Positions 34,148-51,504 of a DNA stretch of 64,000 bases are shown here, piece by piece (position 1 is the stretch's first letter; the number at the start of each line of letters is the position of its first letter). Made by a program: the position numbers and the translations under genes. Location of the stretch: assembly GCA_040006935.1 (NCBI GenBank), contig JBDTVZ010000003.1:139988-203987 (forward strand), read 5' to 3'. The notes beneath the pieces are model-generated. The model ran no database searches and was not told the origin of the DNA. It saw only the letters and a program-made list of their open reading frames with translations. This DNA comes from Candidatus Dojkabacteria bacterium (lineage in GTDB: Bacteria; Patescibacteriota; Dojkabacteria; J137).

Positions 34148-34879
34148 ATGAGCAAATTATCAATTGTAATTCCTGTATGGAACGAAGAAAGAACTCTCGA
34201 AGAACTTGTGAGAAAGGTTTATTCAGTAGATCTTCCAAGAAACTTTGAAAAAGAATTTGTAATTGTTAATGATGGTTCTAAAGATAAGTCATGGCAGATA
34301 ATGCTAAAACTTGCTACTGAATTAAAAAATGTAAAAGCAATTCAAAATGAAAAAAATATGGGGAAATCTCAAACAGTTCGGAATGGAATCTTAAAAACAA
34401 CTGGAGAATTCGTAATTATTCAAGATGCAGATTTAGAATACGATCCAAATGAAATTCAAAATTTGCTAAAGCTTGCTTTAGATAAAAATCTAGACGTAGT
34501 TTATGGAAATCGATTTGGTAAAGATAACAAAGTAATCTACTGGTTAAATTATATTGGCAATAGATTTCTTTCAGTATTTTCAAATGTCTTTACTCTTCCA
34601 CGAGTTAAAGTTTGGATTCCAGATATGGAAGTTTGTTATAAATTAGTTAAGGGAGATGTTTTTAGAGAAATTGCAAAAGATATTACAGCGAAATCGACTT
34701 TTGGATTGGAACCAGAAGTTACAGCAAAACTTTCGAAATATAAAGAAAACGGAAAACATTTAAAATTTGGAATTGTTCCAATTAGTTACTTCCCGAGAAG
34801 TATGGCTGAGGGAAAGAAAATGCATGCAGTCAAAGATGGATTAAAAGCAATGGTGGAAATAATAAAATATAACCTATAA
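34148..34879 (+). CDS. GT2 polyprenyl-phosphate glycosyltransferase (DPM1/ArnC/GtrB-like).
   Basis: LSIVIPVWNEERTLEEL...VIVNDGSKDKS...IIQDADLEYDP; a short soluble GT-A of 243 aa. Confidence 0.75.
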   Translation: MSKLSIVIPVWNEERTLEELVRKVYSVDLPRNFEKEFVIVNDGSKDKSWQIMLKLATELKNVKAIQNEKNMGKSQTVRNGILKTTGEFVIIQDADLEYDPNEIQNLLKLALDKNLDVVYGNRFGKDNKVIYWLNYIGNRFLSVFSNVFTLPRVKVWIPDMEVCYKLVKGDVFREIAKDITAKSTFGLEPEVTAKLSKYKENGKHLKFGIVPISYFPRSMAEGKKMHAVKDGLKAMVEIIKYNL

Positions 34880-34881
34880 TC

Positions 34882-35601
34882 ATGAGTATTAAATCTAATG
34901 ATAAAATCTACGTAATCATTCCGGCTTTTAACGAAGAACCTGTCATCTCTCAAGTTATTAAATCTGTTCAACAAGAAGGCTTTGAAAACATAATTGTTGT
35001 AAACGATGGTAGTTTTGATAATACCTCAACCGTTGCAAAAGAAACTGGTTGTATAGTTTTAGATCATTTAGTTAATCGAGGAAAAGGTGCAGCAACACAA
35101 ACAGGAATGGATGCTGCAAAACTTCTAGATGCAGATTACGCCGTGACTTTAGATGCTGACGGTCAGCATAACCCTGCAGACATTCATGAAATTCTAAAAC
35201 CCTTATTAAGTAAAGAAGTGGATGTCTCTCTCGGGAGTAGGTTCTTAAGTAAGCAGCCCATTCCTTTTTCAAGAGTTTTTGCAAACAAAGTTGGTAATTT
35301 AATTACGTTTTTATTCTACGGTATTCATGTATCAGACAGTCAGTCGGGATTCCGTGGATATAATACCAAAGCTTTAAAAACAATTTACACAACTTTTGAT
35401 CGATATGAATTTGAATCCGAAATAATTCATCAAATAAATATTCATCAATTAAAATATAAAGAAGTTCCAATTACGGTTTCATACTCAAATTATTCTCAAA
35501 ATAAATGGAAGAATATAAACAAAGGGACTCAAGTTTCGCAAACATTTCTTAATGGTTTCAATATGCTTTTTAGAATGATTATTAGAAGTATTACAACATG
35601 A
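34882..35601 (+). CDS. GT2 polyprenyl-phosphate glycosyltransferase (GtrB/ArnC-like), second copy.
   Basis: IYVIIPAFNEEPVISQVIKSV...VVNDGSFDNT...TLDADGQH. Confidence 0.75.
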   Translation: MSIKSNDKIYVIIPAFNEEPVISQVIKSVQQEGFENIIVVNDGSFDNTSTVAKETGCIVLDHLVNRGKGAATQTGMDAAKLLDADYAVTLDADGQHNPADIHEILKPLLSKEVDVSLGSRFLSKQPIPFSRVFANKVGNLITFLFYGIHVSDSQSGFRGYNTKALKTIYTTFDRYEFESEIIHQINIHQLKYKEVPITVSYSNYSQNKWKNINKGTQVSQTFLNGFNMLFRMIIRSITT

Positions 35602-35945
35602 CAGAAATATTTACTTATCAAATTATAGTTCTAATAGTTTGCGCACTATTAGTTTTGAGAACAATTTATTATTTTCTAAAAGGAATAAAATCTTTTAGAG
35701 AAGTAATTCTAGCAATTATAATTTGGGGAACATTTAGTTTAGTTAGTTTATTTCCTGTTGTTCTTCAAGACTTTGCACATTTACTTGGTTTTCAGCTTGG
35801 AGTTAATGCTGTATTAGTAATCTCAACTATAATCATTTTCTTCCTACTCTTAAGACTAATTGTTCGTGCAGATACACAAGAAATGATAATTACAAGATTA
35901 GTTAGAAGTTTAGCGTTAGAAGATTTAATGAAAAATAAGAATTAA
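35598..35945 (+). CDS. Small 3-4 TM membrane protein accompanying the GtrB-like GT2 (DUF2304/GtrA-like role).
   Basis: Hydrophobic 115-aa protein; 4-nt overlap with the upstream GT2. Confidence 0.4.
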   Translation: MTEIFTYQIIVLIVCALLVLRTIYYFLKGIKSFREVILAIIIWGTFSLVSLFPVVLQDFAHLLGFQLGVNAVLVISTIIIFFLLLRLIVRADTQEMIITRLVRSLALEDLMKNKN

Positions 35946-35954: not shown

Positions 35955-37100
35955 ATGGAAAAGATTGCTCTGGTTCTATATTATTACCAACCGTACGTAA
36001 GCGGACTTAGCAAATATGCCCAGACGATTGCAGAGGAACTTGCTGCCTCCGGAAATTACGAAGTGACTGTAATTACTTCCAAATATGAATCTTCAATTTC
36101 TCCCAACGAAACTATCAATAATGTAAAAGTATTAAGAAAGAAAGTATGGTTGAGTTTTGGGAAAGGAGTAATTGCGCCTGGAATAATTTGGGAATTATTT
36201 AAAAAAAGAAATAAATTCGATAAGGTTTTTGTTTTTGTTCCTTTTGGTGAGGCTGGAATAATCCCATTGGTTATAAATAAAAACAAACTATTTTCATTTT
36301 ATGTTTGCGATATAAATCTAGGAAAAAGTTTTATTATGAAGATAGTGGAAAAAATATCTTTTTTGTCAGCGAGAGTTTTATTAAATCGTTCTAAAAAAAT
36401 AATTCCTCTAAGTGACGACTACATGTTTCATTCAAGGATATTTAAGGAAAATGATAAGTCTAAGGTAATTTCATTATTTCCAAAAATAGAAGAGCCAGAT
36501 TTATCCGTTACAAAAGATCAAGTTGCTCAATACAAGTCTAGATACGGAATAAAAGAAAATGATTTTGTAGTTGGATTTTTAGGAAGAATAGTTTTTGAAA
36601 AAGGAATTGAATACTTAATTGATACAGTACCTCTACTCAAAGACAAAATAAAAAATCTTAAAATATTCATCGGTGGGGATTATAAAAACGTTCGAGGTGG
36701 AAGTGTATACGATAATTTAAAAGATAAAATAGAAAGTTATAAAGAAAATATTATTGTTACTGGATTTGTACTCGAGGAAGAAAAATCTTTATTTCTCCAT
36801 AGTTCAAATGTTTTTGTTCTTCCAAGTATTGATCCATTGGAGGCTTTTGGAATTGTTCAAGTTGAATCCATGATATGCGATGTTCCAGTAATTGCATCCT
36901 CTCTATTTGGTGTGAGAGAAGTTGTTAACAATACTAAATTTGGTTTCCTGGCTTCCCCAAAATCATCGGAGGAGCTTGCCGAAAAAATTATGCAAGTTTA
37001 TGAAAATGCTGATAAACTAAAGCCGTACAAGGATGAATATAAAAAATATTATTCGAATGAAATTTGGAAAAAACAATTATATAAAATTTTAGCTAATTAA
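35955..37100 (+). CDS. GT4-family glycosyltransferase.
   Basis: C-terminal PSIDPLEAFGIVQVESMICDVPVIAS motif. Confidence 0.75.
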   Translation: MEKIALVLYYYQPYVSGLSKYAQTIAEELAASGNYEVTVITSKYESSISPNETINNVKVLRKKVWLSFGKGVIAPGIIWELFKKRNKFDKVFVFVPFGEAGIIPLVINKNKLFSFYVCDINLGKSFIMKIVEKISFLSARVLLNRSKKIIPLSDDYMFHSRIFKENDKSKVISLFPKIEEPDLSVTKDQVAQYKSRYGIKENDFVVGFLGRIVFEKGIEYLIDTVPLLKDKIKNLKIFIGGDYKNVRGGSVYDNLKDKIESYKENIIVTGFVLEEEKSLFLHSSNVFVLPSIDPLEAFGIVQVESMICDVPVIASSLFGVREVVNNTKFGFLASPKSSEELAEKIMQVYENADKLKPYKDEYKKYYSNEIWKKQLYKILAN

Positions 37101-37102
37101 CT

Positions 37103-37804
37103 ATGCAGTTTGTTAAAGAAGATCAAAAATATTTTAACTCAAAGTATTTCAATAATAATGGTCAAAGCGGAGATAGATTAGCTCTTCAATTTTACTTTGA
37201 TATTCTAAAAAATTATTTAAAAGACGGAAAAGTTTTTGAATTTGGTTGTGGTGAGGGATATTTGTCTAAAAGAATTGCAACTAAATTTGATAGTTATGCG
37301 TACGATTTATCTGAATACTGTAGAAATAAAACCAAAGAGATTTCACCAAAATCTACAATAATAAATGCTGAAGCTGATTTCCCCTCAGATTCTTTTAATG
37401 CAGTGGTTACTCTTCATACATTAGAACATGTCCCAAATCCGCCGGAAACATTAGCTCTATTAAACAAATCCTTAAAAGTAGGAGGAATATTATTATTTGT
37501 TGTCCCTAACCCAAATGGATTAGGCCATAAAATAAAAAGAGAGAAATGGTTTGGATATAGAGATACTACACATATTTCCATGTATGAAAGTAGCAAATGG
37601 AAAGAGTTAGTTAAGTCATCAGGGTTTGAAATTGTAAAAACGGCATCTGATGGATTCTGGGATGTTCCCTATGTAAAATATCTTCCAAATATCCTACAAA
37701 AATTAATCTTTTTCCCAAGTGCTGGAATACAAGTTATTCTAAAAAGACTCTTCTTACCCGATTGGTTTGGAGAAGATTTAATTATGGTTGCAAGAAAGAA
37801 ATGA
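37103..37804 (+). CDS. Class I SAM-dependent methyltransferase.
   Basis: Motif I VFEFGCGEGYLS. Confidence 0.75.
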   Translation: MQFVKEDQKYFNSKYFNNNGQSGDRLALQFYFDILKNYLKDGKVFEFGCGEGYLSKRIATKFDSYAYDLSEYCRNKTKEISPKSTIINAEADFPSDSFNAVVTLHTLEHVPNPPETLALLNKSLKVGGILLFVVPNPNGLGHKIKREKWFGYRDTTHISMYESSKWKELVKSSGFEIVKTASDGFWDVPYVKYLPNILQKLIFFPSAGIQVILKRLFLPDWFGEDLIMVARKK

Positions 37805-38181
37805 AAAAAAAATCTATGTTCACACTAATCGATATCATTCTCTTTATATCCATTACAATAATTGCATCTATTGCAAATGTATTATTAAAAATTGGATCCG
37901 GTAAATTTATTTCGTATATTAATCCTGTACAATTCGTAACAGACAACCTCACAATACTTTTGGGTTATGTTTTGTATCTTATTCCTTTATTTCTAACAGT
38001 TATGTTATATAAAAAATTTAAGGTGAGTTTAGTTCAAACTGTGGCAGCAAGTGTTTATATTCTGACTCCATCATTGGCTGTAATCGTAGGGGTGGAAAAT
38101 TTAAATATTTATAAAGTAATAGGAATTGGATTAATAACCACGGCAGTGATTTATATAGTAAATTTAAGCTCTAAAGAATAA
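37801..38181 (+). CDS. SMR/EamA-like 4-TM small membrane protein (ArnE/ArnF-like putative lipid-linked sugar flippase subunit).
   Basis: About 126 aa with 4 hydrophobic helices; ATGA overlap with the methyltransferase stop at 37801-37804. The tracked start at 37762 is probably too early. Confidence 0.5.
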   Translation: MKKKSMFTLIDIILFISITIIASIANVLLKIGSGKFISYINPVQFVTDNLTILLGYVLYLIPLFLTVMLYKKFKVSLVQTVAASVYILTPSLAVIVGVENLNIYKVIGIGLITTAVIYIVNLSSKE

Positions 38182-38522
38182 TGCAAATACTGGATATCTT
38201 ATTAATAATTATTGATGTGAGTATTACCTCTCTAGGTGGAGTATTCCTCAAAGTAGGGGCTACTCGCAAAAATTTATTGGTGAAGCTTTTCTTTGTTGGC
38301 TTAGGAATTGGGATTTATCTTGGAATGTCCTTCATTACAGTCTTCCTATATTCAAAATATAGCATTGTTTTCGTACAAACAGCATTAGCTTTTACATATG
38401 TGACAACTCCTCTATTTGCAATGATTTTTCTTAAAGAAAAGGCTAGTAAAAAGATATTTCTTGGTCTATTGCTAATTGTAATAGGTGTGTTCTTTGTTAG
38501 TTATGGAAACTCTATAAACTAG
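38181..38522 (+). CDS. SMR/EamA-like 4-TM small membrane protein, the paired partner (ArnE/ArnF-like).
   Basis: 113 aa with 4 hydrophobic helices; TAATG overlap with the upstream paralog. Confidence 0.5.
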   Translation: MQILDILLIIIDVSITSLGGVFLKVGATRKNLLVKLFFVGLGIGIYLGMSFITVFLYSKYSIVFVQTALAFTYVTTPLFAMIFLKEKASKKIFLGLLLIVIGVFFVSYGNSIN

Positions 38523-38538
38523 TTCTTCTGCTTTGGAA

Positions 38539-39390
38539 TTAAATCTTAAATGCCAGTATTCCCAACATATAAAATCCCCAAATAACTACTAAAGTAATTA
38601 GCGGTTTGCTTTTAAATAAAGCAGACACAGGATCCTCTACTAGCTCTCCTGAAAATAATTCATAGAAATAAAGCATGAATCCTAGTACAACAAAAACTAT
38701 AGAAAGTTCAAAGGCCAAGCTTTTGGTAGTAGTGTATAAAGAATAGAACAAAATCGTGCTGAAAGAGGCAAGAGTGAGTACATATTTCAGAAAGTCATTA
38801 GTGTAGTGTTCCAGAACTTTTCTACTAGAACTGCCATTATTTGCCAGTTCCGCGTATCTTTTCCCTGAGCCTAGGAATAAAGCAAAGAAAAATGTTGTTA
38901 ATAAAATCCACGAAGACAAATCTACACCTGTCACAATACCTCCTGCCAACACTCTGATAATGTAGAATACTGCGAGAACAATAATATCCACTACAGCGAC
39001 ATGTTTTAAGTAAGTAGTATAAAGAATGTTGAGTATTAAATAGGTCACTAGAATCAAAACAAAGCTTGTTTCTAAATATAATGCAATAAAGATTGAAATT
39101 ATCAAAAGAATAGCTGCTAAAACCCAAGCAAATGATACACTTATAATATTTGCAGCAATTGGTCGAGTTTTCTTTTTAGAATGTTTACGATCACTTTCAA
39201 CATCTCTAATATCATTGAAAATATAAACTGTGCTTGCCATTAGCGAAAAACTTACGAATGCAAGAATATTAACTAAGTCTTTATTGAAATGTATAAATTC
39301 ACCAGAAAATATTAAAGGAAGGAATAAGAATCCATTCTTAACCCACTGGTGAACTCTCATTAATTTTAGAATGCTTTTTAATTTCTTCAT
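38539..39390 (-). CDS. UbiA-family prenyl-phosphate 5-phosphoribosyltransferase-like enzyme (DPPR synthase / Rv3806c-like).
   Basis: NDIRDVESDRKHSKKKTRPIAANIIS closely matches the ND..DvE.DR.HP.K..RPIA signature of the decaprenyl-phosphate phosphoribosyltransferase subfamily. The start is assigned to MKKLK, giving an ATGA overlap with the PAP2 stop. Confidence 0.65.
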   Translation of the reverse strand: MKKLKSILKLMRVHQWVKNGFLFLPLIFSGEFIHFNKDLVNILAFVSFSLMASTVYIFNDIRDVESDRKHSKKKTRPIAANIISVSFAWVLAAILLIISIFIALYLETSFVLILVTYLILNILYTTYLKHVAVVDIIVLAVFYIIRVLAGGIVTGVDLSSWILLTTFFFALFLGSGKRYAELANNGSSSRKVLEHYTNDFLKYVLTLASFSTILFYSLYTTTKSLAFELSIVFVVLGFMLYFYELFSGELVEDPVSALFKSKPLITLVVIWGFYMLGILAFKI

Positions 39391-39881
39391 ATAATTGTGA
39401 TATTTAAAGTACCGACAATTATACCTAAACATATGCTAAATAGCACATCTGATGCGTAATGATGTTTTAGAGTTATTCTTGAAAGTGCAACTAGGAATGC
39501 ATAACATGTCACCACAATCCCAAGATAAAAATTCAAGTTAAAGCACAATGGTAAGATTTGGAATGCTGTAAATGTATGTGCTGATGGAAACGAATATTGA
39601 TCGGGTCCAAGTCCAGTAAGTCTTTTCAAATGAGATTTACTAGGCTCTACCGGCCTTGTTCGTTTGATAATTCTTTTTAATATGAAAATAAAAATATCTG
39701 CAATAAAGAACACTACAATATTCAAAAGAATAGTATTATTCAAAAATACGAAGTTGATAAACAAAAAGAAAATATAAGTTATTTTTGGGTTAATCGAAAA
39801 AATTAGAATTAAATTTCTAATTTTTGATTTCCTTAAAAACTCTGTTTTTTCAAATACAAAATTGTCTAATTCGTTGATCAT
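39387..39881 (-). CDS. PAP2-family membrane phosphatase (Rv3807c-like).
   Basis: PAP2 motifs KRTRPVEP ... PSAHT ... SRITLKHHYASD. Confidence 0.75.
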   Translation of the reverse strand: MINELDNFVFEKTEFLRKSKIRNLILIFSINPKITYIFFLFINFVFLNNTILLNIVVFFIADIFIFILKRIIKRTRPVEPSKSHLKRLTGLGPDQYSFPSAHTFTAFQILPLCFNLNFYLGIVVTCYAFLVALSRITLKHHYASDVLFSICLGIIVGTLNITII

Positions 39882-39882
39882 A

Positions 39883-40104
39883 TTATAAAGCAGTTCTACC
39901 CATAATCAGATTAAGCAAATCTTTAACACTTATCAAAGCTACTTTTATCCCATGTACTTTATCTGGAGTAAGTGCAAAAACAAAATAATCTATAAAGAAA
40001 ATTAAAAATACGATTAATATTAGTGACTCTATAACTATTTTATTTTGGACTAGTTTTTTAAATATTTGTTTCATAAATTGCATAAGTATGTAAATCGCTT
40101 GCAT
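39883..40104 (-). CDS. Small hydrophobic protein between the PAP2 and GT-C genes.
   Basis: 73 aa with 1-2 TM helices; it overlaps the GT-C 3' end by 47 nt. It may be real or may reflect an alternative C-terminus of the GT-C. Confidence 0.3.
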   Translation of the reverse strand: MQAIYILMQFMKQIFKKLVQNKIVIESLILIVFLIFFIDYFVFALTPDKVHGIKVALISVKDLLNLIMGRTAL

Positions 40105-42304
40105 TAGTTAAACCAAATCTAATTTTTGATATTGAATTATATTTTAAAGGTATTGTTTGTGTTCCAAACATCACACCATTTCCATTTTCGGGAGCAAAAT
40201 CCAAGTTGACAAATGTCTCATCATTTCCTAGGAATATATGGAAAAATATTGCAGGATTCTCAATTTCGTCGGGTTTATTTAAATAAAATTCGATACTAAA
40301 GGTTTTAACTCCATAAACTTCGGTAAGTTTATAATCTTTAATCACAACCGCTTTACTAATATCGTTTTCAAATGTTTTTTCTGAAAGGGTCTTTTTAGTT
40401 GAAGTATTTGGTTTATATGCAAATAGGAAATGAGGTCCATCAATATCCGTAATTAATTTTTCGAATAACTCTGGATGTTTATTAGCAATTGCTGCTTCTG
40501 GCATTCCGTCCAAAACAACTACATAAACTGGGTTAACTTTAGCAACTGCATCTAGCCACACTGAATCGTCACCTGGTCTTGCGGGAACAAAAACAACGTC
40601 ATTACTAAAGTCTTTATTGTACAGAGCATAAGGAAACCAAATTTTATCTCCTATTACTACACTCTGATTTTTGCCTAGTGTAGTATTAATAAGTATATTC
40701 ATGTCCCGTGTCTTGAGTGAACTTGCATAACTAATATTATCCGCATTTATTAATTGTTTGATAGTATCTACCGGTCTAAAAAAAGTTCCATCTATAGTCA
40801 GTACAAAACTTAATCCAAATAATAAAAATAGAACTATAAGTACAATATAGCGTCCCAATTTAGAAGTAATATACTTATTTAATAAATATATGAACGGAAT
40901 TATTCCAGCTATACATATAAATCCCGTATAGTGTGGAATCCAATTCCCTGGAAGCACAAGTAATATTAAAGTAGGAACTATTATAAAAATAAATAAATCT
41001 AAATATTTCTTTAAAATCGAAATTAAAAAAACAATCAGCATACTTGGTAATAAGAATACAAACCAAATCGAACCAAACCCATCTAATTTGCCATCAGCTA
41101 TATAATAAACTCCAGACCATCCTTCTCTCTCCTCCCAAACATAGATTAACCTTTGTATAAGATTTCTACTTTCAATTTGAGGTAGGCTATTAGTAAAATC
41201 TAAACCAGCCCATTCACCCGGGAAATGTATCCCTAAAACTGTAAATTCCACTGGGAATAATGGATTACCAAAGTAGTACCAACTCCTAAAATACCAAAAT
41301 GAGCCAAGTACAAACATCGCTACAATAATAAATCCAGTGAGAATTACTAAAGGTTTAAAGATTTTTCTCCAACCAATTTGTTTGAATAAAACTATTAAAA
41401 ACCCTAAATAGAAAACAAGAACATAAATTATCGCAGAAGATTTTGATCCAAAAATTATTCCTAAAGATAAACAGATCCCAACAAAAAGTGTAAGATTTTT
41501 TCTTTTGAAAACTTCTTTAAAATTTATATTTAACAGGAGATATAAAGAAGCCATTAATAAGGTCCACATTGTAATGTCTACTTTTTCGGTTTTTGAGACT
41601 AATAATAATATTGGTATGCTATAAACTAAAAGTCCTCCAATAATTGCAAATCTTTTCTTAGATCCAAAATGACGACAAAGTAAGTAAATAACTCCACTTA
41701 GGGAAATGAGAAAGTACATATTAGTTATTTCTGCAAGGACGTCACTTCGGAAGAAAATCATATTCCATAAATCCAGAAGTTCGATATCATGTGGGAAACT
41801 AATGGTATACAAATGTGTATAATCAAAGTACCTTATTTGACCAGTTTTAATAATATCGGCTACAAATCCTAGATGATAATGATAATCATCCCACGAAGTA
41901 GGCGGATGAACTATAATCAGAATCAAAAGATTAGTTAAAGTAAATATTGCGAGAATAATAAATGCCCACAAAATAATATCTCTTTTATTAACTTTCTTGA
42001 ATTCATTATTAAAATTCTTTAATTTACTTAACAATATCTTTGGTCTAAATCTGGAGACATAAAGTAATATAAGTGATATCCCAATATTTAGAGTAAATAA
42101 TTCAACTGGGTATAAACGTTTAAGAATTAGTCCCAAGAAGAAAGAAGTTAGAATAATTTGAGTAATTCCAAATATGAAAGTAAGTATAAAATTGAATCGT
42201 CTTTGTAAATTAAACTTCTCTTTGAAAAACCAGTACCAACCTAAAATCAGAAAGGAATTTATGATTATATATGCGAGTAAATTTATTAGGAATGACTCAG
42301 TCAT
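40058..42304 (-). CDS. Large GT-C fold polytopic membrane glycosyltransferase (arabino/ribofuranosyltransferase-like; lipid-linked donor user).
   Basis: 748 aa. About 13 or more TM helices in the N-terminal 500 aa with a WDDYHYH loop motif after an early TM helix, and a soluble ~230-aa C-terminal domain. Confidence 0.55.
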   Translation of the reverse strand: MTESFLINLLAYIIINSFLILGWYWFFKEKFNLQRRFNFILTFIFGITQIILTSFFLGLILKRLYPVELFTLNIGISLILLYVSRFRPKILLSKLKNFNNEFKKVNKRDIILWAFIILAIFTLTNLLILIIVHPPTSWDDYHYHLGFVADIIKTGQIRYFDYTHLYTISFPHDIELLDLWNMIFFRSDVLAEITNMYFLISLSGVIYLLCRHFGSKKRFAIIGGLLVYSIPILLLVSKTEKVDITMWTLLMASLYLLLNINFKEVFKRKNLTLFVGICLSLGIIFGSKSSAIIYVLVFYLGFLIVLFKQIGWRKIFKPLVILTGFIIVAMFVLGSFWYFRSWYYFGNPLFPVEFTVLGIHFPGEWAGLDFTNSLPQIESRNLIQRLIYVWEEREGWSGVYYIADGKLDGFGSIWFVFLLPSMLIVFLISILKKYLDLFIFIIVPTLILLVLPGNWIPHYTGFICIAGIIPFIYLLNKYITSKLGRYIVLIVLFLLFGLSFVLTIDGTFFRPVDTIKQLINADNISYASSLKTRDMNILINTTLGKNQSVVIGDKIWFPYALYNKDFSNDVVFVPARPGDDSVWLDAVAKVNPVYVVVLDGMPEAAIANKHPELFEKLITDIDGPHFLFAYKPNTSTKKTLSEKTFENDISKAVVIKDYKLTEVYGVKTFSIEFYLNKPDEIENPAIFFHIFLGNDETFVNLDFAPENGNGVMFGTQTIPLKYNSISKIRFGLTNASDLHTYAIYETNI

Positions 42305-42423: not shown

Positions 42424-43698
42424 ATGAATCCCATGGATAAAATAAAAAAATTTATTGGTATATATCAAAATTTTGGTCTAAGTTACTTTCTGGATTTGAT
42501 TATCAGAAAAGCATCCTTCGGGAAGATAAATTTAAATATTAAACCTAATTTTGATAAATTTCTAGAAAACAATGTTTCATCGGATCACTCAAAGAAACAA
42601 ATTATCTTCTTTGTCCCTTGGTTTACTTTTGGGGGAACAGATATTGTAAACTACACGCTCCTTAATAATATGGACCAAACTAAATTCCAGTTCCATCTCT
42701 TCTCTACAATCCGAGGAGCAAACAATATTTGGTTTGATAAATTTAAAGCTATTAATAACGAAATTTTTCATCTTCCTGATTTAATATCAGAAGATAATTA
42801 CGAAGAGTTGATAAAAAAGTATATTAAGTATGTGAATGCAGAGACTTTTTTTGTTTCTAATTCATCTAAAGGTTATGACTTAATCCCATTCGTCAGAAGA
42901 GAATTCCCTCAAATTAAGATAGTCGATCTTTTACATGGACAAGGAGGCTCTAAAGAAAGTGGTGGTTTCCCAGAATATTCTAAAAATCTAGATAAATATA
43001 TTGATACAAGAATTGCAATTAATAATTTCTTAAAGAACTATTTAATAGAAAAATATAATATAGATCCTAAAAAAATAACAGTAATCCAAAATGCTATTGA
43101 ATTCAGTGATAAAGTGGAGAAAGGTATATATAGATCAAAACAAAAAGTGGATGAGAACGAATTTGTTGTTACGTACTTAGGAAGATTAGCACCAGAGAAA
43201 CATCCTGAAATTATTGTAAAAATAGCAAATGAGCTTGTTAATAATCAAGGTGTGGGAAATATCAGCTTTTTTATTGGAGGCGATGGACCACTTTTCGACG
43301 AGGTATCCAAAGAAATTCGAACTTTAAAACTAGGAAATAAAATTCATCTATTAGGCTATTATCCGAATAATGAAGCGGTCAAAATTCTAAGTGATTCTAA
43401 CCTTCTTGCTGTGACATCTGAGATGGAAGGTTCTCCCATTGTAATTCTAGAAGCAATGAATTTAGGAGTACCCGTCCTAGCAAGTAAAGTTGGTGGAATT
43501 CCAGAACAAGTGGACGATCAAATAACTGGCGTATTGATAGAGTTCAATGAGAACTTTGTAGAAACGGCCGCCCAAGAAATTCTTGAGTTGAAAAATAATA
43601 GAGAAAAGCTCTCCTCAATGGGTTTAAAATCCAAAGAGAAAGCAACAACAACTTTTTCAGTTAAAGAGATGATTTCGAAGTACGAAAGTTCACTTTAA
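42424..43698 (+). CDS. GT4-family glycosyltransferase.
   Basis: EGSPIVILEAMNLGVPVLASKVGGIPE. Confidence 0.8.
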   Translation: MNPMDKIKKFIGIYQNFGLSYFLDLIIRKASFGKINLNIKPNFDKFLENNVSSDHSKKQIIFFVPWFTFGGTDIVNYTLLNNMDQTKFQFHLFSTIRGANNIWFDKFKAINNEIFHLPDLISEDNYEELIKKYIKYVNAETFFVSNSSKGYDLIPFVRREFPQIKIVDLLHGQGGSKESGGFPEYSKNLDKYIDTRIAINNFLKNYLIEKYNIDPKKITVIQNAIEFSDKVEKGIYRSKQKVDENEFVVTYLGRLAPEKHPEIIVKIANELVNNQGVGNISFFIGGDGPLFDEVSKEIRTLKLGNKIHLLGYYPNNEAVKILSDSNLLAVTSEMEGSPIVILEAMNLGVPVLASKVGGIPEQVDDQITGVLIEFNENFVETAAQEILELKNNREKLSSMGLKSKEKATTTFSVKEMISKYESSL

Positions 43699-46521
43699 GA
43701 TTTCGTTAAATGCTTTCTGCATTTCTTTTAAAGAAAACTCTCTTTCAACTGTTTCTCTAGCATTTTTACCTATACCTTGAACAATCTTTTTATCTTCTGC
43801 TAAAAGACTAACAATAAGATCTGCAAAATCATTAACTAAGTTATTGCCATATTCAATTAAGAATCCGTCCCTGCCGTGTTCAACCATTTCCGGTATTCCA
43901 CCAACTTTAGTACTTATAACAGGAACTTCCATCGCCATACTTTCTAACGTACTTACTGGCATTCCCTCCATTTCAGAAACTATTAATGAGTAATCTGTAT
44001 CTTTTAATATGTAGGGTGCTTCAGAATTTTGAAAAAAATCTGTAAAGAAAACTGATTCATTAAGTTTTAAATCTTCAACTTCAGTTTGTAGTTCCTTCAA
44101 CATTGGACCACCACCAGCAATTATTAATTTTACATTCCTTATTTTTCGAACGTTTATTAATTCATTTGCAATTTCAACAAGTTTTTCAGGACTCTTATCA
44201 AAATTTAACCTGCCTAAATAACTTAGAACAATATCTTTTGCACTCATTTTAAATTTCTTTCGATACTTCCCAGCCTCAAATTTTGTAGGATCAAATTTGT
44301 TTAAATCTATTCCATTATGGACGACCAAGATCTTTCCTGGATTTACTCCATACTCGTTCACCATTAATTCCTTAAGCATTTTACTAGCCACGATATGAGT
44401 TTCAATATGTTCATCAAATTGGACGCAGTATTTAGGGTAACCACCACCTTCGTTTTTCATACCTTGCGCTTGGATCAGGTCCATAATCCTTATCTTTGGA
44501 AATACTTTTTTAATCTCAGGAATCATGTCAAATCCAGCTTGGCTATTTCCAATCAAAATAGTATCTATGTGGCCTAGTTTTATATACTCCTTAATAAATG
44601 CAAAATAGAAGTTTTCATTTACATACTCAGACAAGTGGAACATATTTGGAGTAAGTTTTTTAAATTCTTTCTCCCAAGTATGGTTTGATAAAAGAGTTGT
44701 AAAAACGTGAGTATTAAATTCCTTTGGATTTAATCCGGCAATAGTATCCAGCATTAACTTATCAAAGCCTCCGGCAACAAGCCACGGAAAAATAAACATA
44801 ATATTTTTCTTATCTTCATTAAATTTAGCGCGATCATTTATGAATGTAGAAATATTATTATAGTCATCTCTGATTGAATATTTCATTACAAATCTTTTCT
44901 GAGGATCGAGGTTTAATATTAAATTATTACTTTCTTCGAATAAGTATAATTTTGTATTGCCAATTCCAGTTTCAAGCTTGCCAATCGCAAAGTCTATATG
45001 TTCCTCTTTTAAATCAAAAGACTCTTTATCCTTGTCATCATTAAGAATGGCTACAATTTGTAACTTTGGATATCTCATCTTAATTTCAGGAAGATGTAAA
45101 TATAAAAAGTTTGATTTGGATACAATTAAAGTAGAGGTTTTTCTGGTCTCGATTAGGTAGTATAAAATCTCACGCCAGTTATCTTTATTTGGATAAAGTT
45201 TCCCGAGATGGAAAATGTCACTAGTTAAATCCTCAAAATTATAAGGAGATTCAAGTAAATAACTTTCGAAATCACTAGTTGTAACAAAACCTATGTTAGC
45301 ACCAGTAATTAATTTAGTTTTACTTGCGAAATTGTAAATGTATCTAGATTCATCTTCTATTCCTAAAGTTTCGGCAACAAATAGTATATGAGTTCTTTGA
45401 TTATCATTGGTTCGATCTGCATCCAATAAATTTAGTAGGGGATTTTTTACTGTATATTTCTTAAGTTTGTTTACAATATTTTGAATATACTTTCGGTTGG
45501 TAATTGCCTTAATATGTTTATTCCTTATTGTACTTACCCAATGCATATGCCTATCGTGTGATTTCTGACTCTCTGTGTGTCCATGTCTTCTATATAAAAG
45601 TAAAGGTTCGTGAACAATATCACTTGCAGCACTCTGCTCTGCCATTGATATCCAGAAATCCCAATCCTCGTAACCTTTTATTTTTGAATCATAAGGACCC
45701 ACTTTCATTCCTAATTCCCTTCTAAAAATTGCAGAACAATGTTGAGTATTTTCATGAACAATTGATCGAATATCTAAAATTCCACGTTCAAAGGTAAAGC
45801 TGGCATCTCCAAATTCTTTATGCCATGTATTACATACGTCTAAATTCCCAAGTTCAAGCTTAAGTAAACATTTTTCTAAATATGTAGGTTTAAGTTTATC
45901 GTCTGCATCTAATCTACAAATATATTTTCCTTTAGCGTGCCTAACTCCATTGTTAAACGCTCCTGGAATATAGGTATTTTCTTCTTGAAAAATAACTCGA
46001 GTCTTAGGTTTTTTGAGACTGTGGATAATATCAATCGAATATGGTTCAGTCGAAGCATCATCTACAATTATAATTTCAAAATTCTGGAAAGTCTGGTTAA
46101 GTACAGAGTCCACTGCTTGTTCTATGTATCTACCATAGTTGTGATATGGAATAACTACGCTGACAAGTGGTGCACCTTTTTTCCATTTTGTTAATTCCAC
46201 TTCTACAGGTAAACTGGGTTTAACAACAACGGGTTGAATAGTATTTGGAGTCATTCGTGCCTTTATGGCTCGAGTCGGGGGATTTAAAATTCTTTTTGCT
46301 CTCTCGGGTAATATTAATTTCCCTATTAAGTAAACACTTCTGAAAATCTTTCTCGGCACAGTATCAAACCTGAAAGTGGAGTAAAAGCGGTAAAATGCGT
46401 TATCCCTTAATATATATGAATCGTATTCTACTCTTTTATTGATTGCATCTAGCTCCCTATTTCTATTTAATAAAAATGTTCTTTCCTTTTCCAAAAAGGC
46501 TTTTTCATCAAGATCGTCCAT
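43690..46521 (-). CDS. Bifunctional GT2 (N-terminal) - GT4 (C-terminal) fusion glycosyltransferase, 943 aa.
   Basis: N-terminal LVSVVIPYHNYGRYIEQAVDSVLNQTFQNFEIIIVDDAS...RLDADD and C-terminal EGMPVSTLESMAMEVPVISTKVGGIPE. Confidence 0.75.
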   Translation of the reverse strand: MDDLDEKAFLEKERTFLLNRNRELDAINKRVEYDSYILRDNAFYRFYSTFRFDTVPRKIFRSVYLIGKLILPERAKRILNPPTRAIKARMTPNTIQPVVVKPSLPVEVELTKWKKGAPLVSVVIPYHNYGRYIEQAVDSVLNQTFQNFEIIIVDDASTEPYSIDIIHSLKKPKTRVIFQEENTYIPGAFNNGVRHAKGKYICRLDADDKLKPTYLEKCLLKLELGNLDVCNTWHKEFGDASFTFERGILDIRSIVHENTQHCSAIFRRELGMKVGPYDSKIKGYEDWDFWISMAEQSAASDIVHEPLLLYRRHGHTESQKSHDRHMHWVSTIRNKHIKAITNRKYIQNIVNKLKKYTVKNPLLNLLDADRTNDNQRTHILFVAETLGIEDESRYIYNFASKTKLITGANIGFVTTSDFESYLLESPYNFEDLTSDIFHLGKLYPNKDNWREILYYLIETRKTSTLIVSKSNFLYLHLPEIKMRYPKLQIVAILNDDKDKESFDLKEEHIDFAIGKLETGIGNTKLYLFEESNNLILNLDPQKRFVMKYSIRDDYNNISTFINDRAKFNEDKKNIMFIFPWLVAGGFDKLMLDTIAGLNPKEFNTHVFTTLLSNHTWEKEFKKLTPNMFHLSEYVNENFYFAFIKEYIKLGHIDTILIGNSQAGFDMIPEIKKVFPKIRIMDLIQAQGMKNEGGGYPKYCVQFDEHIETHIVASKMLKELMVNEYGVNPGKILVVHNGIDLNKFDPTKFEAGKYRKKFKMSAKDIVLSYLGRLNFDKSPEKLVEIANELINVRKIRNVKLIIAGGGPMLKELQTEVEDLKLNESVFFTDFFQNSEAPYILKDTDYSLIVSEMEGMPVSTLESMAMEVPVISTKVGGIPEMVEHGRDGFLIEYGNNLVNDFADLIVSLLAEDKKIVQGIGKNARETVEREFSLKEMQKAFNEILK

Positions 46522-46545: not shown

Positions 46546-47553
46546 TTGATATATATTCATTGTATGAATCCTGTAAGAAACATTATACCTAAAGTTAAAA
46601 CAATAATTAAAGAATTCCTTGGTTTAAACTACCCATATGTTTATGTTCAAAGACGACTTAGCTCTTTTGCAAAAGTCGTTTCTCCAATCTCTAATAAGGA
46701 AGTATATAACAAAGAGGTAGATATTATAATGCCTATCTATAACAGATTAGCGGAAACAAAAATGGCTATTGAGTATTTATTTAAGAATGCCAATATAAAA
46801 TTCAAACTAATCCTTGTTGATAATAACTCAGATAATAAAACGCAGGAATATCTTAAGAATTTATCACATAAAAATATTAAAGTAATTTTTCTTAAAGAAA
46901 ATCTTGGTGCTTCAATCGCCCGAGAATCTGGATTAAAAGAGTCACAGAATGAGTTTGTAGCATTTGTTGATAACGATATCTTAATCATGCCAAATTACTT
47001 TGAAAATCTTCTAACAACAATTCAAACTGATAATAAAATTGCTGGGGTCCAATCCAAAGTTGTTCTACCAAATTTAAAGATTCAAATAAATACTCCAACT
47101 TTCATGATAAAAGATCAAGATATTGTCTTCACAGATAAAGATATTGACAAAAAATTCGACGACAAATCCACTTTTGAATCTAAAACATGTAACTATATTC
47201 CAATAGGTGCAACTTTATGGAGAAGAGAAGTTTTTAACAGGTTCAGCTTTGACGAAGGAATGAATACAGCTTTTGAAGATAATGACTTCGCATATTCTGT
47301 ATATAAGGGAGGATATATTTTTAGAAACTGTCCTAAAGCAATTGCTTTGCATATAAATTCAGAATTCTCTCCCAAAACCATTCAAGATAATAGTTATATG
47401 GCAGGAAGATATTCAAATGATAAATTACTCAAAAGTCTTAAAATCTTCTATAAAAAACATCAGCTAATTTTCTATTTTAAGACTAAAGAAGGGTTTGCTA
47501 AATATTTAGGTTTTAGCAATCCAGAAGAATATGAAAACTCCCTCAAAGCCTAA
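46546..47553 (+). CDS. GT2-family glycosyltransferase.
   Basis: VDIIMPIYNRLAETKMAIEYL...LVDNNSDN...FVDNDI. Confidence 0.7.
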   Translation: MIYIHCMNPVRNIIPKVKTIIKEFLGLNYPYVYVQRRLSSFAKVVSPISNKEVYNKEVDIIMPIYNRLAETKMAIEYLFKNANIKFKLILVDNNSDNKTQEYLKNLSHKNIKVIFLKENLGASIARESGLKESQNEFVAFVDNDILIMPNYFENLLTTIQTDNKIAGVQSKVVLPNLKIQINTPTFMIKDQDIVFTDKDIDKKFDDKSTFESKTCNYIPIGATLWRREVFNRFSFDEGMNTAFEDNDFAYSVYKGGYIFRNCPKAIALHINSEFSPKTIQDNSYMAGRYSNDKLLKSLKIFYKKHQLIFYFKTKEGFAKYLGFSNPEEYENSLKA

Positions 47554-48489: not shown

Positions 48490-49185
48490 TTACTTATTTT
48501 TAATAAATATCATTGCATTCTGTGATAGCCACCATGCAACTTTCTTTTCTTTTAAACTTTCTCTCATTTTCATCGTATCTTCCTTTTTATATTCAAATCC
48601 TTGTTCCTCAAAAAGTTTAATCCAATATTCATTAGGCTGCTCATTAATATGGTCATCTCCACCTTGTCCCGGAATCGCAGCAGTAAAGAATAGCTTATCT
48701 GCATGTCTTGTCATATTACCAACTAAAGTAGAAGCAAATTTAGCCTGTAAATGCTCTGCAACTTCTATACAGATTACAAGATCAAATTTTTTCCCTAACT
48801 CTAACTTCTTTCTTAAATCGAAAACTTGAATATATTTAGGATCAACTAATGCATTTTGTTTTGCCCAGTCGCTTCCATCAACCCCCTGTGCATCAACCCC
48901 CCGTTTCAAAAATTCTCTTAGGTAAGGACCATTTCCGCAACCAACGTCCAGCAATGTTTTAGGTTGAAAATAATTATATAGTTCATCAATAAATCTATTC
49001 ATATTGGGAAGATTTGAAATATCTTCGTAATATTCGCCATTATAAATTGTGCTAATTTCATTTTTACCCTGTACTCTTGCAAGGAATTTCCTAACTTTAT
49101 ATTCTAAAGATTTAGAAGCTCTGAAGATTACGTATTTGAAGCCGTGATTCTTGAAATATAAATAGTAATTTGAAAAAAGATTCAT
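48490..49185 (-). CDS. Class I SAM-dependent methyltransferase.
   Basis: Motif I LLDVGCGNGPYL; 1-nt gap to the downstream GT2. Confidence 0.7.
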   Translation of the reverse strand: MNLFSNYYLYFKNHGFKYVIFRASKSLEYKVRKFLARVQGKNEISTIYNGEYYEDISNLPNMNRFIDELYNYFQPKTLLDVGCGNGPYLREFLKRGVDAQGVDGSDWAKQNALVDPKYIQVFDLRKKLELGKKFDLVICIEVAEHLQAKFASTLVGNMTRHADKLFFTAAIPGQGGDDHINEQPNEYWIKLFEEQGFEYKKEDTMKMRESLKEKKVAWWLSQNAMIFIKNK

Positions 49186-49252
49186 AACATTATCTGATAA
49201 AATATTGCTACAATTATAATCTAAAAAAGTAATTTGTTATACAGATTTTATT

Positions 49253-50209: not shown

Positions 50210-50210
50210 A

Positions 50211-51503: not shown

Positions 51504-51504
51504 T

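Follow-up and report, generated by a model that had tools for sequence, protein, structure and literature searches.

A gene module in an uncultured, ultra-small member of Candidatus Dojkabacteria (WS6/Dojkabacteria) probably decorates a surface polysaccharide with a pentofuranose (D-ribofuranose being the likeliest) on the outer side of the cytoplasmic membrane. The DNA analyzed is a 64-kb stretch of a 213.5-kb contig (hereafter, the window), in which three minus-strand open reading frames (ORFs) were confirmed at positions 38539-39432, 39387-39881, and 40058-42304. They belong to a larger module, of seven genes or more, that also includes a 63-aa microprotein ORF, an SMR/ArnEF-like pair of small membrane proteins, and a conserved GT4 glycosyltransferase, the whole being embedded in a Wzm/Wzt glycan cluster. 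The genes concerned, together with a variable accessory gene, are as follows:

38539..39390, minus strand: predicted polyprenyl-phosphate 5-phosphoribosyltransferase (PPPRS/DPPRS, Rv3806c family), 283 aa (NF008978, PDB 8j8j, residue matches)
39387..39881, minus strand: PAP2 phosphatase, 164 aa (PF01569), predicted polyprenyl-P-ribose-5-phosphate 5-phosphatase (Rv3807c role)
39883..40074, minus strand: microprotein ORF, 63 aa from M11 (73 aa if the ORF is taken to 40104)
40058..42304, minus strand: GT-C, 748 aa, predicted polyprenyl-P-pentofuranose:glycan transferase
38181..38522, plus strand: small membrane protein, 113 aa, about four hydrophobic segments, SMR/ArnE-like
37801..38181, plus strand: small membrane protein, 126 aa, paralog of the 113-aa protein
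37103..37804, plus strand: SAM methyltransferase, 233 aa (PF13489, 87 bits), the variable accessory gene between the GT4 gene and the small-protein pair
35955..37100, plus strand: GT4 glycosyltransferase, 381 aa (PF00534, 121 bits)

An earlier note on this DNA had missed both the small ORF (39883-40074) and the functionally linked plus-strand genes (35955-38522).

The functional start of ORF 38539-39432 is probably M15, at position 39390. The UbiA homolog scored 211.9 bits against the NCBIfam model for decaprenyl-phosphate phosphoribosyltransferase (NF008978; cut-off, 207) and aligned with the structure of Rv3806c (PDB 8j8j) at 38% identity over 266 aa (E = 3e-47). It is identical to Rv3806c at 12 of the 13 residues that contact PRPP, Mg, or decaprenyl phosphate in that structure (R22, K28, Y70, N73, D74, D77, D81, K87, R90, Y138, K143, and Y157), Q135 being replaced by N. 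The residue roles are those given in the structure paper, according to which K28, Y70, and Y157 are phosphoribose-specific and absent from prenyl-transferring UbiA enzymes (PMC10994848). The signature motif FNDIRDVESDRKHSKKKTRPIAAN highlighted in the earlier note is present in the sequence, and the substrate and metal residues are invariant across the eight closest homologs. With the ND..D...D..H motif likewise invariant among them and the protein falling into the DPPR-synthase clade rather than that of the MenA/UbiA quinone enzymes, the proposed Rv3806c identity stands, and the predicted reaction is the conversion of PRPP to polyprenyl-P-beta-D-ribofuranose-5-P. The NCBI pipeline already names this protein "decaprenyl-phosphate phosphoribosyltransferase," and in one related locus (L014) the synthase homolog is immediately preceded by a PRPP synthetase gene of the same operon. 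An aromatic prenyltransferase (MenA, UbiA, or CyoE, acting in quinone, haem, or chlorophyll synthesis) that adjoins PAP2 and membrane-protein genes by chance would fit the general Pfam UbiA match (78.6 bits) and the label "4-hydroxybenzoate polyprenyltransferase" that JGI gives to close homologs. However, the MenA, UbiA, CyoE, ChlG, and GGGP synthase models reach at most 61 bits versus ~212 for DPPRS, the match to an archaeal UbiA structure has 26.5 bits versus 165 bits for Rv3806c, and the phosphoribose-binding residues are kept alongside the PRPP synthetase linkage; model scores, structure match, and phosphoribose residues refute this identity, which has next to no chance of being correct.

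The PAP2 protein matches PF01569 with 61 bits, and its translation shows intact KxxxxxxRP, PSAH, and SRxxxxxHxxxD motifs. Its identity to the PAP2 protein that precedes DPPRS in Tsukamurella is 34% over 96 aa (E = 2e-9). These similarities make the Rv3807c-type 5-phosphatase role suggested in the earlier note credible. The proposed ATGA coupling was also recovered: the PAP2 stop overlaps the UbiA start in this way in the window, in related loci L001, L008, L010, and L012, and in Rhodococcus and Tsukamurella. Locus L006 and a Lactococcus plasmid have a HAD-IB phosphatase in place of PAP2, and the phosphoribose-phosphatase domain of Citrobacter youngae ORF15 belongs to the HAD superfamily (PMC11127046).

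Transcription in the window proceeds from GT-C through the microprotein ORF and PAP2 to UbiA, the four genes forming one translationally coupled operon. The M. tuberculosis gene order aftB-ubiA-Rv3807c, to which the locus had been likened, does not hold: in Rhodococcus and Tsukamurella, which served as stand-ins for Mycobacteriales, the genes are transcribed in the order PAP2-DPPRS-AftB, with AftB downstream, whereas the GT-C gene of the window lies upstream of PAP2-UbiA. What the two arrangements have in common is limited to the PAP2-UbiA pair with its ATGA overlap. The microprotein ORF overlaps the stop of the GT-C gene, and its own end lies 1 nt ahead of the PAP2 ATG. Its product has a basic N-terminus, a single transmembrane helix, and a DYFxxx(L/M)TxDK motif, and is 40% identical to its counterpart in L001 (tblastn, E = 5e-13). 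In each of the nine loci, which range from 28 to 49% GC, an equivalent ORF of 50-73 aa overlaps the GT-C stop or comes after it, and gene callers had already annotated it in L001, L006, L010, and L014; that the microprotein is an accessory subunit of GT-C is a guess.

The 748-aa protein had been described as a GT-C, and its fold, nearest to those of ArnT and PMT, bears this out. About 13 transmembrane helices (residues 1-504) are followed by an alpha/beta domain (~533-630) and a C-terminal, CBM-like beta-sandwich (~637-746). Relatives of the protein carry Pfam PMT_2, and comparison with AftB revealed no sequence similarity. The synthase gene adjoins the GT-C gene in nine of nine loci, and a distant GT-C relative is encoded beside PAP2-DPPRS-GtrA in Streptomyces viridifaciens. 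The catalytic loop (residues 136-142) was modeled with low confidence, which counts against our preferred reading.

The two small membrane proteins are paralogous (hhalign probability 98.2%, E = 5.8e-14), and their genes overlap, the 126-aa start with the methyltransferase stop (ATGA) and the 126-aa stop with the 113-aa start (TAATG). The pair is kept in five related loci; in L001, L002, L003, and L010, the 113-aa protein is 40-56% and the 126-aa protein 42-56% identical, and the former is present also in L014. Sub-threshold matches of the 113-aa protein to Pfam EamA (E = 3.8e-4) and NCBIfam ArnE (E = 2.3e-3), a full-length match of its L001 ortholog to the SMR protein EbrA (E = 4e-7), a match of the L010 ortholog to ArnE (E = 1e-3), and a profile match to the DMT protein LicB (E = 0.047) make the pair a candidate heterodimeric flippase for a lipid-linked pentose, these similarities being weak. 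A possible role for the 381-aa GT4 is building the acceptor residue. Its counterparts in L001, L002, L003, and L010 are 52-63% identical, and that in L006 is 30% identical; a GT4 of the same size adjoins GT-C in L012 and L014, and genomes of Anaerolineales and Cellvibrionales encode homologs (28-33% identity) close to PPPRS genes. The simple model does not account for the role of this tightly co-conserved enzyme, which is counted against it. The 233-aa methyltransferase has a homolog in L006 (37% identity), its position being occupied in L010 and L012 by methyltransferases of other families. The surrounding glycan cluster, with backbone synthesis genes assigned by Pfam, comprises the following:

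32652-34073: membrane protein, 473 aa
34148-34879 and 34882-35601: two GtrB/GacI-like polyprenyl-phosphate sugar synthases
42424-43698, plus strand: GT4, backbone synthesis
43690-46521, minus strand: GT2-GT4 fusion, 943 aa, backbone synthesis
46546-47553, plus strand: GT2, backbone synthesis
47550-48488, minus strand: GT2, backbone synthesis
48490-49185, minus strand: methyltransferase (Pfam)
49253-50209, plus strand: methyltransferase (Pfam)
50211-51503, minus strand: Wzt, ABC ATPase (PF00005) with a C-terminal Wzt_C carbohydrate-binding domain (PF14524)
51505-52284, minus strand: Wzm, ABC-2 permease (PF01061)

Wzm and Wzt presumably export the acceptor polysaccharide, and ABC transporter genes are present in L006 and L008 as well.

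The earlier note had found no DprE1/DprE2 pair in the window, and the searches agree: the window ORFs of 100 aa or more contained neither FAD_binding_4/ALO nor classical SDR domains, and six-frame tblastn of the window with 26 DprE1-like and 26 DprE2-like queries returned zero matches. Nor were DprE1/DprE2 homologs found in the eight related loci, each read up to ~10 kb on either side where the contig allows. Since the UbiA homolog belongs to the DPPR-synthase clade, the PAP2 protein is a credible phosphatase, a GT-C is encoded alongside, and the window has no DprE1/DprE2, direct use of polyprenyl-P-ribofuranose by the GT-C, as suggested in the earlier note, is the most economical reading, within the scope of the window. 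Homology and residue conservation establish the synthase family, the PAP2 motifs, and the GT-C fold, and comparative genomics establishes the genetic linkage of the module. The UbiA-family enzyme would move ribose-5-phosphate from PRPP onto polyprenyl phosphate, the likely lipid carrier; the coupled PAP2 would take off the 5-phosphate, yielding polyprenyl-P-beta-D-Ribf; the paralogous SMR/ArnEF-like pair would flip this product to the outer leaflet; and the GT-C, possibly with the microprotein, would put the ribofuranose, apparently unepimerized, on a glycan made by the surrounding GT2/GT4 enzymes and exported through Wzm/Wzt. In acceptor binding, the GT-C may be helped by its C-terminal beta-sandwich; with an inverting enzyme, as in C. 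youngae, the anomeric outcome would be alpha.

Two alternatives retain lipid-linked ribose and change its fate. The ribose could be epimerized to D-arabinofuranose by DprE1/DprE2 encoded elsewhere in the genome, and the GT-C would then act as an arabinofuranosyltransferase, as is known from Mycobacteriales, from pilin glycosylation in Pseudomonas aeruginosa, and from other Araf glycans of bacteria. The synthase and PAP2 do belong to the Rv3806c/Rv3807c families and share their ATGA coupling, and in M. tuberculosis dprE1/dprE2 are likewise not adjacent to ubiA, the window being only part of the genome. The donor tolerance of C. youngae ORF12, which took both Ribf and Xylf donors in vitro, indicates that at least one pentofuranose GT-C accepts several pentoses (PMC11127046). 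However, apart from the lack of DprE1-like sequences in the window and the eight related loci, a survey of 80 diverse synthase loci outside Actinobacteria found both DprE1/DprE2 genes within 7 kb of the synthase in 23, among them every locus with a GtrA-type transporter (13 of 13) and none with a transporter of the small EamA/SMR type encoded in the window (0 of 8), and DprE1/E2 homologs accompany the candidate systems of Araf-containing glycans described by Kelly et al. (PMC11127046); arabinofuranose is therefore unlikely. Quite unlikely, too, is that an unlinked or unrecognized ORF13-like SDR turns the lipid-linked ribose into a different pentofuranose (xylofuranose, for example), or that the ribose undergoes a modification such as methylation before transfer. 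A single GalE-like SDR, ORF13 of C. youngae O2, does switch Ribf to Xylf (PMC11127046), an Epimerase-family SDR adjoins the synthase in Saccharibacteria locus L066, and in the window as well as in L006, L010, and L012, a methyltransferase gene separates the GT4 gene from the flippase genes. But no Epimerase-family or any other SDR gene was found in the window, the SDR pairs of related loci are best read as Gmd/Rmd- or PseB/FnlA-type nucleotide-sugar enzymes, and the methyltransferases vary in family by locus, with none in L001, L002, and L014.

In principle, the GT-C could draw on another donor, a polyprenyl-P-hexose or -HexNAc made by the GtrB/GacI-like synthases, leaving lipid-linked ribose to serve, for instance, the 473-aa membrane protein or another purpose. 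Two DPM1/GtrB-type GT2 genes and a GacJ/Rv3632-type DUF2304 gene indeed lie 3-4 kb away, and some distant GT-C superfamily members occur in clusters without a synthase, such as an ArnA/C/D-like cluster in Haloarcula. Against this very improbable arrangement stand the constant company of this GT-C subfamily and the synthase and their shared, translationally coupled operon; in the six related loci searched, moreover, the DUF2304 gene and the 473-aa protein have no homolog, and the PpgS-like GT2 is only weakly similar (~28-29% identity).

Direct ribofuranosylation by a GT-C from undecaprenyl-P-Ribf has been demonstrated in C. youngae O1, where alpha-ribofuranose side chains are added by a three-component system of ORF15 (PPPRS-PRP), ORF14 (transporter), and ORF12 (GT-C/GT136) (Kelly et al., PNAS 2024, PMC11127046). 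As in that system, an Rv3806c-like synthase would lead from PRPP to a polyprenyl-P-Ribf donor with removal of the 5-phosphate (here predicted from genes), next to a small EmrE/ArnE-like transporter, a GT-C that ends in a beta-sandwich or CBM and is structurally nearest ArnT, and a Wzm/Wzt (Wzt_C) ABC-transporter glycan cluster with methyltransferases, there for O-antigen. Both lack an epimerase (here, within the window), direct transfer of Ribf being biochemically proven there and predicted here. The Dojkabacteria module differs in its separate, mycobacteria-like PAP2 instead of an N-terminal HAD fusion, its heteromeric transporter candidate, its extra microprotein ORF and co-conserved GT4, its host, a candidate-phylum bacterium and not a Gram-negative with LPS, and, by family description, its GT-C, whose relatives are PMT_2 whereas ORF12 is EpsG-like by CDD. 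With the M. tuberculosis decaprenyl-phospho-arabinose pathway (Rv3806c, Rv3807c, DprE1/DprE2, Rv3789, AftA/B/C/D, and EmbA/B/C), the module shares the synthase family with its active site, the phosphatase superfamily, the overlapping PAP2-synthase order, and a GT-C encoded alongside; in contrast, its loci lack DprE1/DprE2, its GT-C is unrelated in sequence to AftB and lies upstream, its transporter candidate is SMR/ArnEF-like rather than GtrA-like (Rv3789), and its neighbors form a Wzm/Wzt cluster rather than a galactan/mycolate locus. In the ArnC/ArnE-ArnF/ArnT system for lipid A L-Ara4N, the donor is also a polyprenyl-monophosphate pentose, and the ~113/126-aa pair resembles the heterodimeric ArnE/ArnF flippase in size and, weakly, in sequence, but the Dojkabacteria synthase is UbiA-type and PRPP-dependent, not a GT2 acting on a UDP-sugar, ArnA, ArnB, and ArnD genes are absent from the locus, and the acceptor is presumably a polysaccharide rather than lipid A. 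D-arabinofuranosylation of type IV pilin in P. aeruginosa similarly has an Rv3806c-type synthase and a separate phosphatase feeding a GT-C outside Actinobacteria, but that system includes DprE1/DprE2 homologs and modifies pilin (PMC11127046), whereas the window has neither such genes nor a pilin context.

The suggestion in the earlier note that a pathway to polyprenyl-phospho-ribofuranose would be unusual in this kind of organism does not survive the C. youngae O1 precedent (PMC11127046) and the presence of synthase homologs in at least 571 species-representative genomes from many phyla, one Saccharibacteria MAG included. A lipid-linked ribose pathway of this kind was already published in 2024, and the Dojkabacteria module is a variant of it, not a new pathway.

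The three minus-strand genes that the earlier note had read as a lipid-linked pentofuranose pathway, encoding a GT-C, a PAP2 protein, and a UbiA homolog, are all present, and they lie next to a microprotein ORF and a set of linked plus-strand genes:

40058-42304, minus strand: GT-C glycosyltransferase, 748 aa
39883-40074 (the ORF extends to 40104), minus strand: microprotein ORF, 63-73 aa, single transmembrane segment, 1 base before the PAP2 start
39387-39881, minus strand: PAP2 protein, 164 aa, probable phosphatase
38539-39390, minus strand: UbiA homolog, 283 aa, predicted synthase of the lipid-linked donor
37801-38181 and 38181-38522, plus strand: two small membrane proteins, paralogs of each other (hhalign 98.2%), transporter candidate
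37103-37804, plus strand: methyltransferase
35955-37100, plus strand: GT4 glycosyltransferase, 52-63% identity across related loci

The UbiA homolog is a member of the Rv3806c family of decaprenyl-phosphate 5-phosphoribosyltransferases (DPPRS), and the corresponding catalytic activity is predicted from its sequence. The protein scores 211.9 bits against the NCBIfam model for decaprenyl-phosphate phosphoribosyltransferase (NF008978; cut-off 207) and 185-198 bits against three sister DPPRS models, compared with at most 61.3 bits against each of the models for quinone, heme, chlorophyll, and GGGP prenyltransferases; an archaeal UbiA protein matched it with 26.5 bits only. The alignment to the Rv3806c structure is full-length (8j8j; E = 3.1e-47, 38% identity, query residues 6-272 and chain residues 16-292). 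When the residues of Rv3806c that contact PRPP, Mg2+, and decaprenyl phosphate (PMC10994848) were mapped onto the synthase, 12 of the 13 proved identical, the exception being the conservative replacement of Q135 by N121. Retained are the NDxxDxxxD motif (N59, D60, D63, and D67) and the cluster of basic residues (R12, K73, R76, and K129, equivalent to R22, K87, R90, and K143 of Rv3806c), as well as K18, Y56, and Y143, which correspond to K28, Y70, and Y157, the residues that, along with Q135, set the phosphoribosyltransferase apart from prenyltransferases of the UbiA superfamily. The substrate- and metal-binding residues are invariant across the eight closest homologs of the synthase. By both model and structure, the protein thus groups with DPPRS rather than with the MenA/UbiA quinone prenyltransferases, and the UbiA motif quoted in the earlier note is present and conserved; neither of the outcomes that the note named as refuting its reading was observed. 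The ORF is readable from 39432, and a start at M15 (39390) produces an ATGA overlap with the PAP2 stop codon and the 283-aa length of the NCBI protein, to which the NCBI pipeline already assigns the synthase name. In one of the related metagenomic loci (L014), a gene for ribose-phosphate pyrophosphokinase, that is, PRPP synthetase, is located directly upstream of the synthase gene and overlaps its start (2810-4634) within a single operon, and this gene context independently supports PRPP as the donor.

The 164-aa PAP2 protein probably corresponds to the Rv3807c-type 5-phosphatase, a substrate specificity predicted from its motifs and its coupled position. It matches PF01569 with 61 bits, carries all three readable catalytic motifs (KxxxxxxRP, PSAH, and SRxxxxxHxxxD), and shares 34% identity (E = 2e-9) with the PAP2 protein that precedes DPPRS in Tsukamurella. 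The PAP2 and synthase genes overlap by ATGA not only in the window but also in four of the related loci from metagenomes and in the two Mycobacteriales records, those of Rhodococcus and Tsukamurella. In another related locus (L006) and in a Lactococcus plasmid, the equivalent place beside the synthase is taken by a HAD-IB phosphatase, HAD being the superfamily of the phosphoribose-phosphatase domain that is fused to the synthase of Citrobacter youngae (PMC11127046). That phosphatases of two different families occur in this place speaks for the synthase product as their substrate.

The 748-aa protein, which is identical to the hypothetical protein ABI721_04890 encoded on a 213,507-bp contig of a Candidatus Dojkabacteria bacterium MAG, matches no Pfam or NCBIfam model and no PDB sequence. 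When 1.84 billion representative proteins were searched with a profile, 9802 relatives were recovered, 351 of them at E <= 1e-30, and among 44 sampled relatives, 14 match PMT_2 (PF13231) and 4 match PMT (PF02366). The AlphaFold2 model built from eight homologs (pLDDT 74.9, pTM 0.74) predicts approximately 13 transmembrane helices followed by an alpha/beta domain and a C-terminal beta-sandwich, with a fold nearest to those of ArnT and Pmt4. The Pfam matches of the relatives, taken together with this fold, suggest that this GT-C belongs to the ArnT/PMT structural class (GT83/GT39). The helix at 110-132 is followed by an invariant SWDDYxYH loop, with D139 conserved in at least 90% of distant members; modeled at low confidence, this loop is, by analogy with other GT-C enzymes, likely to be the catalytic acidic loop. 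Close members of the subfamily (32-48% identity), for which there is no Pfam or NCBIfam model, were seen only in the Dojkabacteria MAG and in metagenome contigs. A third homolog search with a 44-member profile made few additions, a scan of the genome collection with the GT-C profile yielded no matches, and the profile showed no similarity to the GT-C candidate of the Lactococcus plasmid or to a 473-aa membrane protein encoded elsewhere in the window. Among the distant relatives, a 623-aa hypothetical protein of Streptomyces viridifaciens plasmid pKVP1 (23% identity, E = 6e-11) is encoded divergently from a compact PAP2-DPPRS-GtrA operon (24224-28629 of L015, the record of this plasmid), with no annotated DprE1/E2 within 10 kb. 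A Haloarcula relative belongs to an Arn-like cluster that lacks the synthase, indicating that the wider GT-C superfamily is not limited to pentose donors.

The proposed equivalence of this GT-C to AftB (GT89) was rejected. The GT-C profile aligned to the Rhodococcus AftB ortholog with an hhalign probability of 0.04%, AftB is not the closest structural neighbor, and the gene is not downstream of ubiA. Transcription in Rhodococcus and Tsukamurella proceeds from PAP2 through DPPRS to AftB, whereas in the window it runs from the GT-C through the small ORF and PAP2 to UbiA. Hence, of the synteny with Mycobacterium tuberculosis asserted in the earlier note, the PAP2-UbiA pair with its ATGA overlap is common to both, but the GT-C gene lies upstream and the AftB gene downstream. 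As a separate observation, the AftB orthologs of Rhodococcus ruber (9917-11788 of L005) and Tsukamurella tyrosinosolvens (20842-22848 of L011) are labeled "flagellar motor control protein ZomB" in RefSeq, apparently through a misannotation that has been propagated; although filed as plasmids, the two records contain the core cell wall genes glf, fadD32, and pks13.

Conservation of the module was assessed in eight related metagenomic loci with 28-49% GC (L001, L002, L003, L006, L008, L010, L012, and L014). A member of the GT-C subfamily (32-48% identity) is encoded near the synthase gene in all nine loci, the window included, and in all nine, a microprotein ORF (50-73 aa, single-pass) overlaps or abuts the GT-C stop codon. 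The microprotein ORFs carry a DYFxxx(L/M)TxDK motif. The two small membrane proteins have no PDB sequence match, and their similarity to SMR, ArnE, and EamA transporters is weak and below threshold (ArnE, E = 2e-3; EamA, E = 4e-4), with an ortholog from L001 matching EbrA at E = 4e-7. The synthase, phosphatase, transporter candidate, and GT-C are all encoded within 37801-42304, inside a cluster of GT2, GT4, Wzm, and Wzt genes, and the set recurs in the related loci. New and most useful here are the microprotein ORF, the pair of SMR-like proteins, the GT4 conserved with them, and a GT-C subfamily that is tied to the synthase and not covered by existing models. The closest named homologs of the synthase (approximately 40-44% identity), from seven Anaerolineae/Chloroflexota loci (L017-L019, L022, L035, L045, and L077), are paired with a GHMP-family kinase and have no GT-C, so these were set aside as uninformative for the module. 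Several of the Anaerolineae loci encode a homolog of the module GT4 (28-33% identity) a few kilobases away, suggesting that this GT4 family is connected with lipid-ribose synthases that depend on PRPP.

Which pentose the module would supply depends on the 2'-epimerase pair DprE1/DprE2, and its absence from the window, as noted earlier, was corroborated in two ways. Among window ORFs of 100 aa or more, Pfam scans detected no FAD_binding_4/ALO or classical SDR domain, and a six-frame tblastn search with 26 DprE1-like and 26 DprE2-like proteins from other bacteria found no match in the window. A DprE1-like gene is likewise missing from the eight related loci, in which the sole DprE2-like match is a generic FabG-type SDR in L001. 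Neither the 64-kb window nor these eight loci contain an epimerase resembling ORF13 of C. youngae O2. Gene pairs of the Epimerase family located beside the module in L001, L002, L008, and L010 were considered as possible lipid-pentose epimerases, which would have mirrored the difference between the C. youngae O1 and O2 systems; however, NCBIfam models identify them as Gmd (390 bits) with an Rmd/LegB-like protein, or as a PseB/FnlA-like protein with another SDR, and this candidate was rejected because these are nucleotide-sugar enzymes. To calibrate the absence, neighbors were clustered for 80 synthase loci (L020-L099) from species-representative genomes of many phyla. An FAD_binding_4 protein of approximately 430 aa and an SDR of approximately 250 aa both lie within 7 kb of the synthase in 23 of the 80 loci, and in 15 of the 54 loci for which 5 kb or more is available on either side. 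Loci whose transporter is of the GtrA type have the pair in 13 of 13 cases, those with a small EamA/SMR-type transporter in 0 of 8, so that the type of transporter may predict arabinose versus non-arabinose systems; by its transporter candidate, the window would fall in the small EamA/SMR class. Given that arabinose makers outside Actinobacteria usually have linked epimerase genes and the window has none, the gene content of the 64 kb of genome examined favors ribofuranose as the predicted pentose. The survey also brought up a Saccharibacteria MAG in which the synthase is accompanied by an SDR and three large polytopic proteins.

The closest functional precedent is the three-component system of C. 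youngae O1 (PMC11127046). Its synthase resembles Rv3806c and has a HAD phosphatase fused to it, its transporter is a small protein of the EmrE/ArnE-like type, and its GT-C, the founding member of GT136, carries a CBM at the C-terminus. This GT-C adds alpha-Ribf directly from undecaprenyl-P-Ribf (Kelly, Duong, Nothof, Lowary, and Whitfield, PNAS 2024, PMC11127046) to an O antigen that is exported via Wzm/Wzt. In C. youngae O2, a GalE-like SDR turns the donor into Xylf, candidate systems for Araf-containing glycans are accompanied by DprE1/E2 homologs, and further candidate pentofuranose systems were reported in Gram-positive bacteria and one phage (PMC11127046). The Dojkabacteria locus repeats the logic of the O1 system, including the context of Wzm and Wzt with a Wzt_C domain, and its GT-C resembles the GT136 enzyme (ORF12) in the succession of a membrane domain and a C-terminal beta-rich CBM. 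The two differ in that the Dojkabacteria phosphatase is a separate PAP2 protein, a heteromeric pair is the candidate for the transporter, no existing family model covers the GT-C subfamily, a conserved microprotein and a GT4 are added, and the host is a candidate-phylum bacterium. The two GT-Cs are also set apart by description, ORF12 being EpsG-like according to CDD and the relatives of the window GT-C matching PMT_2/PMT. Direct ribofuranosyl transfer by the GT-C, the central idea of the earlier note, is therefore a published mechanism, and with the synthase family widespread, the pathway can neither be called unusual nor does it introduce a new principle. What stands of the earlier interpretation is the synthase, the phosphatase, the GT-C, and the probable ribofuranose, without the AftB homology, the gene order, or the rarity.

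The lipid-ribose module sits within an approximately 21-kb glycan-biosynthesis cluster (approximately 30.9-52.3 kb) of six GT2s, three GT4s, a 943-aa GT2-GT4 fusion, three methyltransferases, a DUF2304 protein, and a Wzm/Wzt ABC exporter, the ATPase of which bears a Wzt_C carbohydrate-binding domain. In E. coli O9a and C. youngae O1, export is terminator-coupled, with the CBM of Wzt reading a terminal methyl-phosphate. The layout of 48490-52284, where two methyltransferase genes directly adjoin those for Wzm and the Wzt_C-containing Wzt, resembles these systems. Directly adjoining Wzm is a gene for a 940-aa S8 subtilase (52320-55142, minus strand) in a segment with a GC content of 0.39 versus approximately 0.31 elsewhere, and L006 contains a Peptidase_S8 gene (18248-20392) a few genes away from ABC transporter genes. 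A second possible lipid-monophosphate-sugar system is located near the module (34882-35601, 35598-35945, and 34148-34879, plus strand; 32652-34073, minus strand). In it, the gene for a PpgS/GacI-like GT2 (NF058614, 136.8 bits, below the cut-off) overlaps that for the DUF2304 protein of the GacJ/Rv3632 family, members of which stimulate PpgS/GacI-like synthases (bioRxiv 10.1101/180810). The same system includes a further, AglJ/GtrB-like GT2. Its last member is a polytopic protein of 473 aa in which helix 1 is followed by an acidic EADEY loop, making it a candidate GT-C (its single-sequence AF2 model is poor, with pLDDT 47). The window as a whole has a low GC content of approximately 31%, no tRNA or Rfam RNA was found in it, and promoter-like sites were fewer than in shuffled sequence. 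It also encodes a homolog of the 23S rRNA intervening-sequence protein (PF05635, 128.7 bits; 59448-59909, minus strand) and a Fic/DOC-domain protein (16301-17530, minus strand), both unrelated to the module.

In a speculative and, in our estimate, quite improbable scenario, the GT-C subfamily would constitute a new glycosyltransferase family operating as a two-subunit enzyme with the microprotein that always accompanies it, the co-conserved GT4 would modify the lipid-bound ribose, for instance by extending polyprenyl-P-Ribf prior to flipping, and the unit transferred on the outside of the cell would comprise more than one pentose. If true, transfer of a multi-sugar unit by a GT-C-microprotein enzyme would go beyond the published three-component scheme. 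On the favored reading, a ribofuranose module of the C. youngae type, the locus would extend the three-component pentofuranose pathway to a candidate phylum, for which our library searches returned no prior report: on the synthase in Patescibacteria/CPR, and on GT136 or three-component pentofuranose systems since the 2024 paper, they turned up only Kelly et al. and its commentary.

Surface glycans are plausible mediators of host attachment and phage recognition. To our knowledge, candidate-phylum bacteria such as Dojkabacteria (formerly candidate division WS6) have not been cultured, and next to nothing is known about the chemistry of their envelopes. The uncharacterized GT-C subfamily, the conserved microprotein, and the co-conserved GT4 are candidates for biochemistry, and the locus predicts that this bacterium would produce a ribofuranose-decorated polysaccharide, with the ribofuranose derived from PRPP via a lipid-linked donor.
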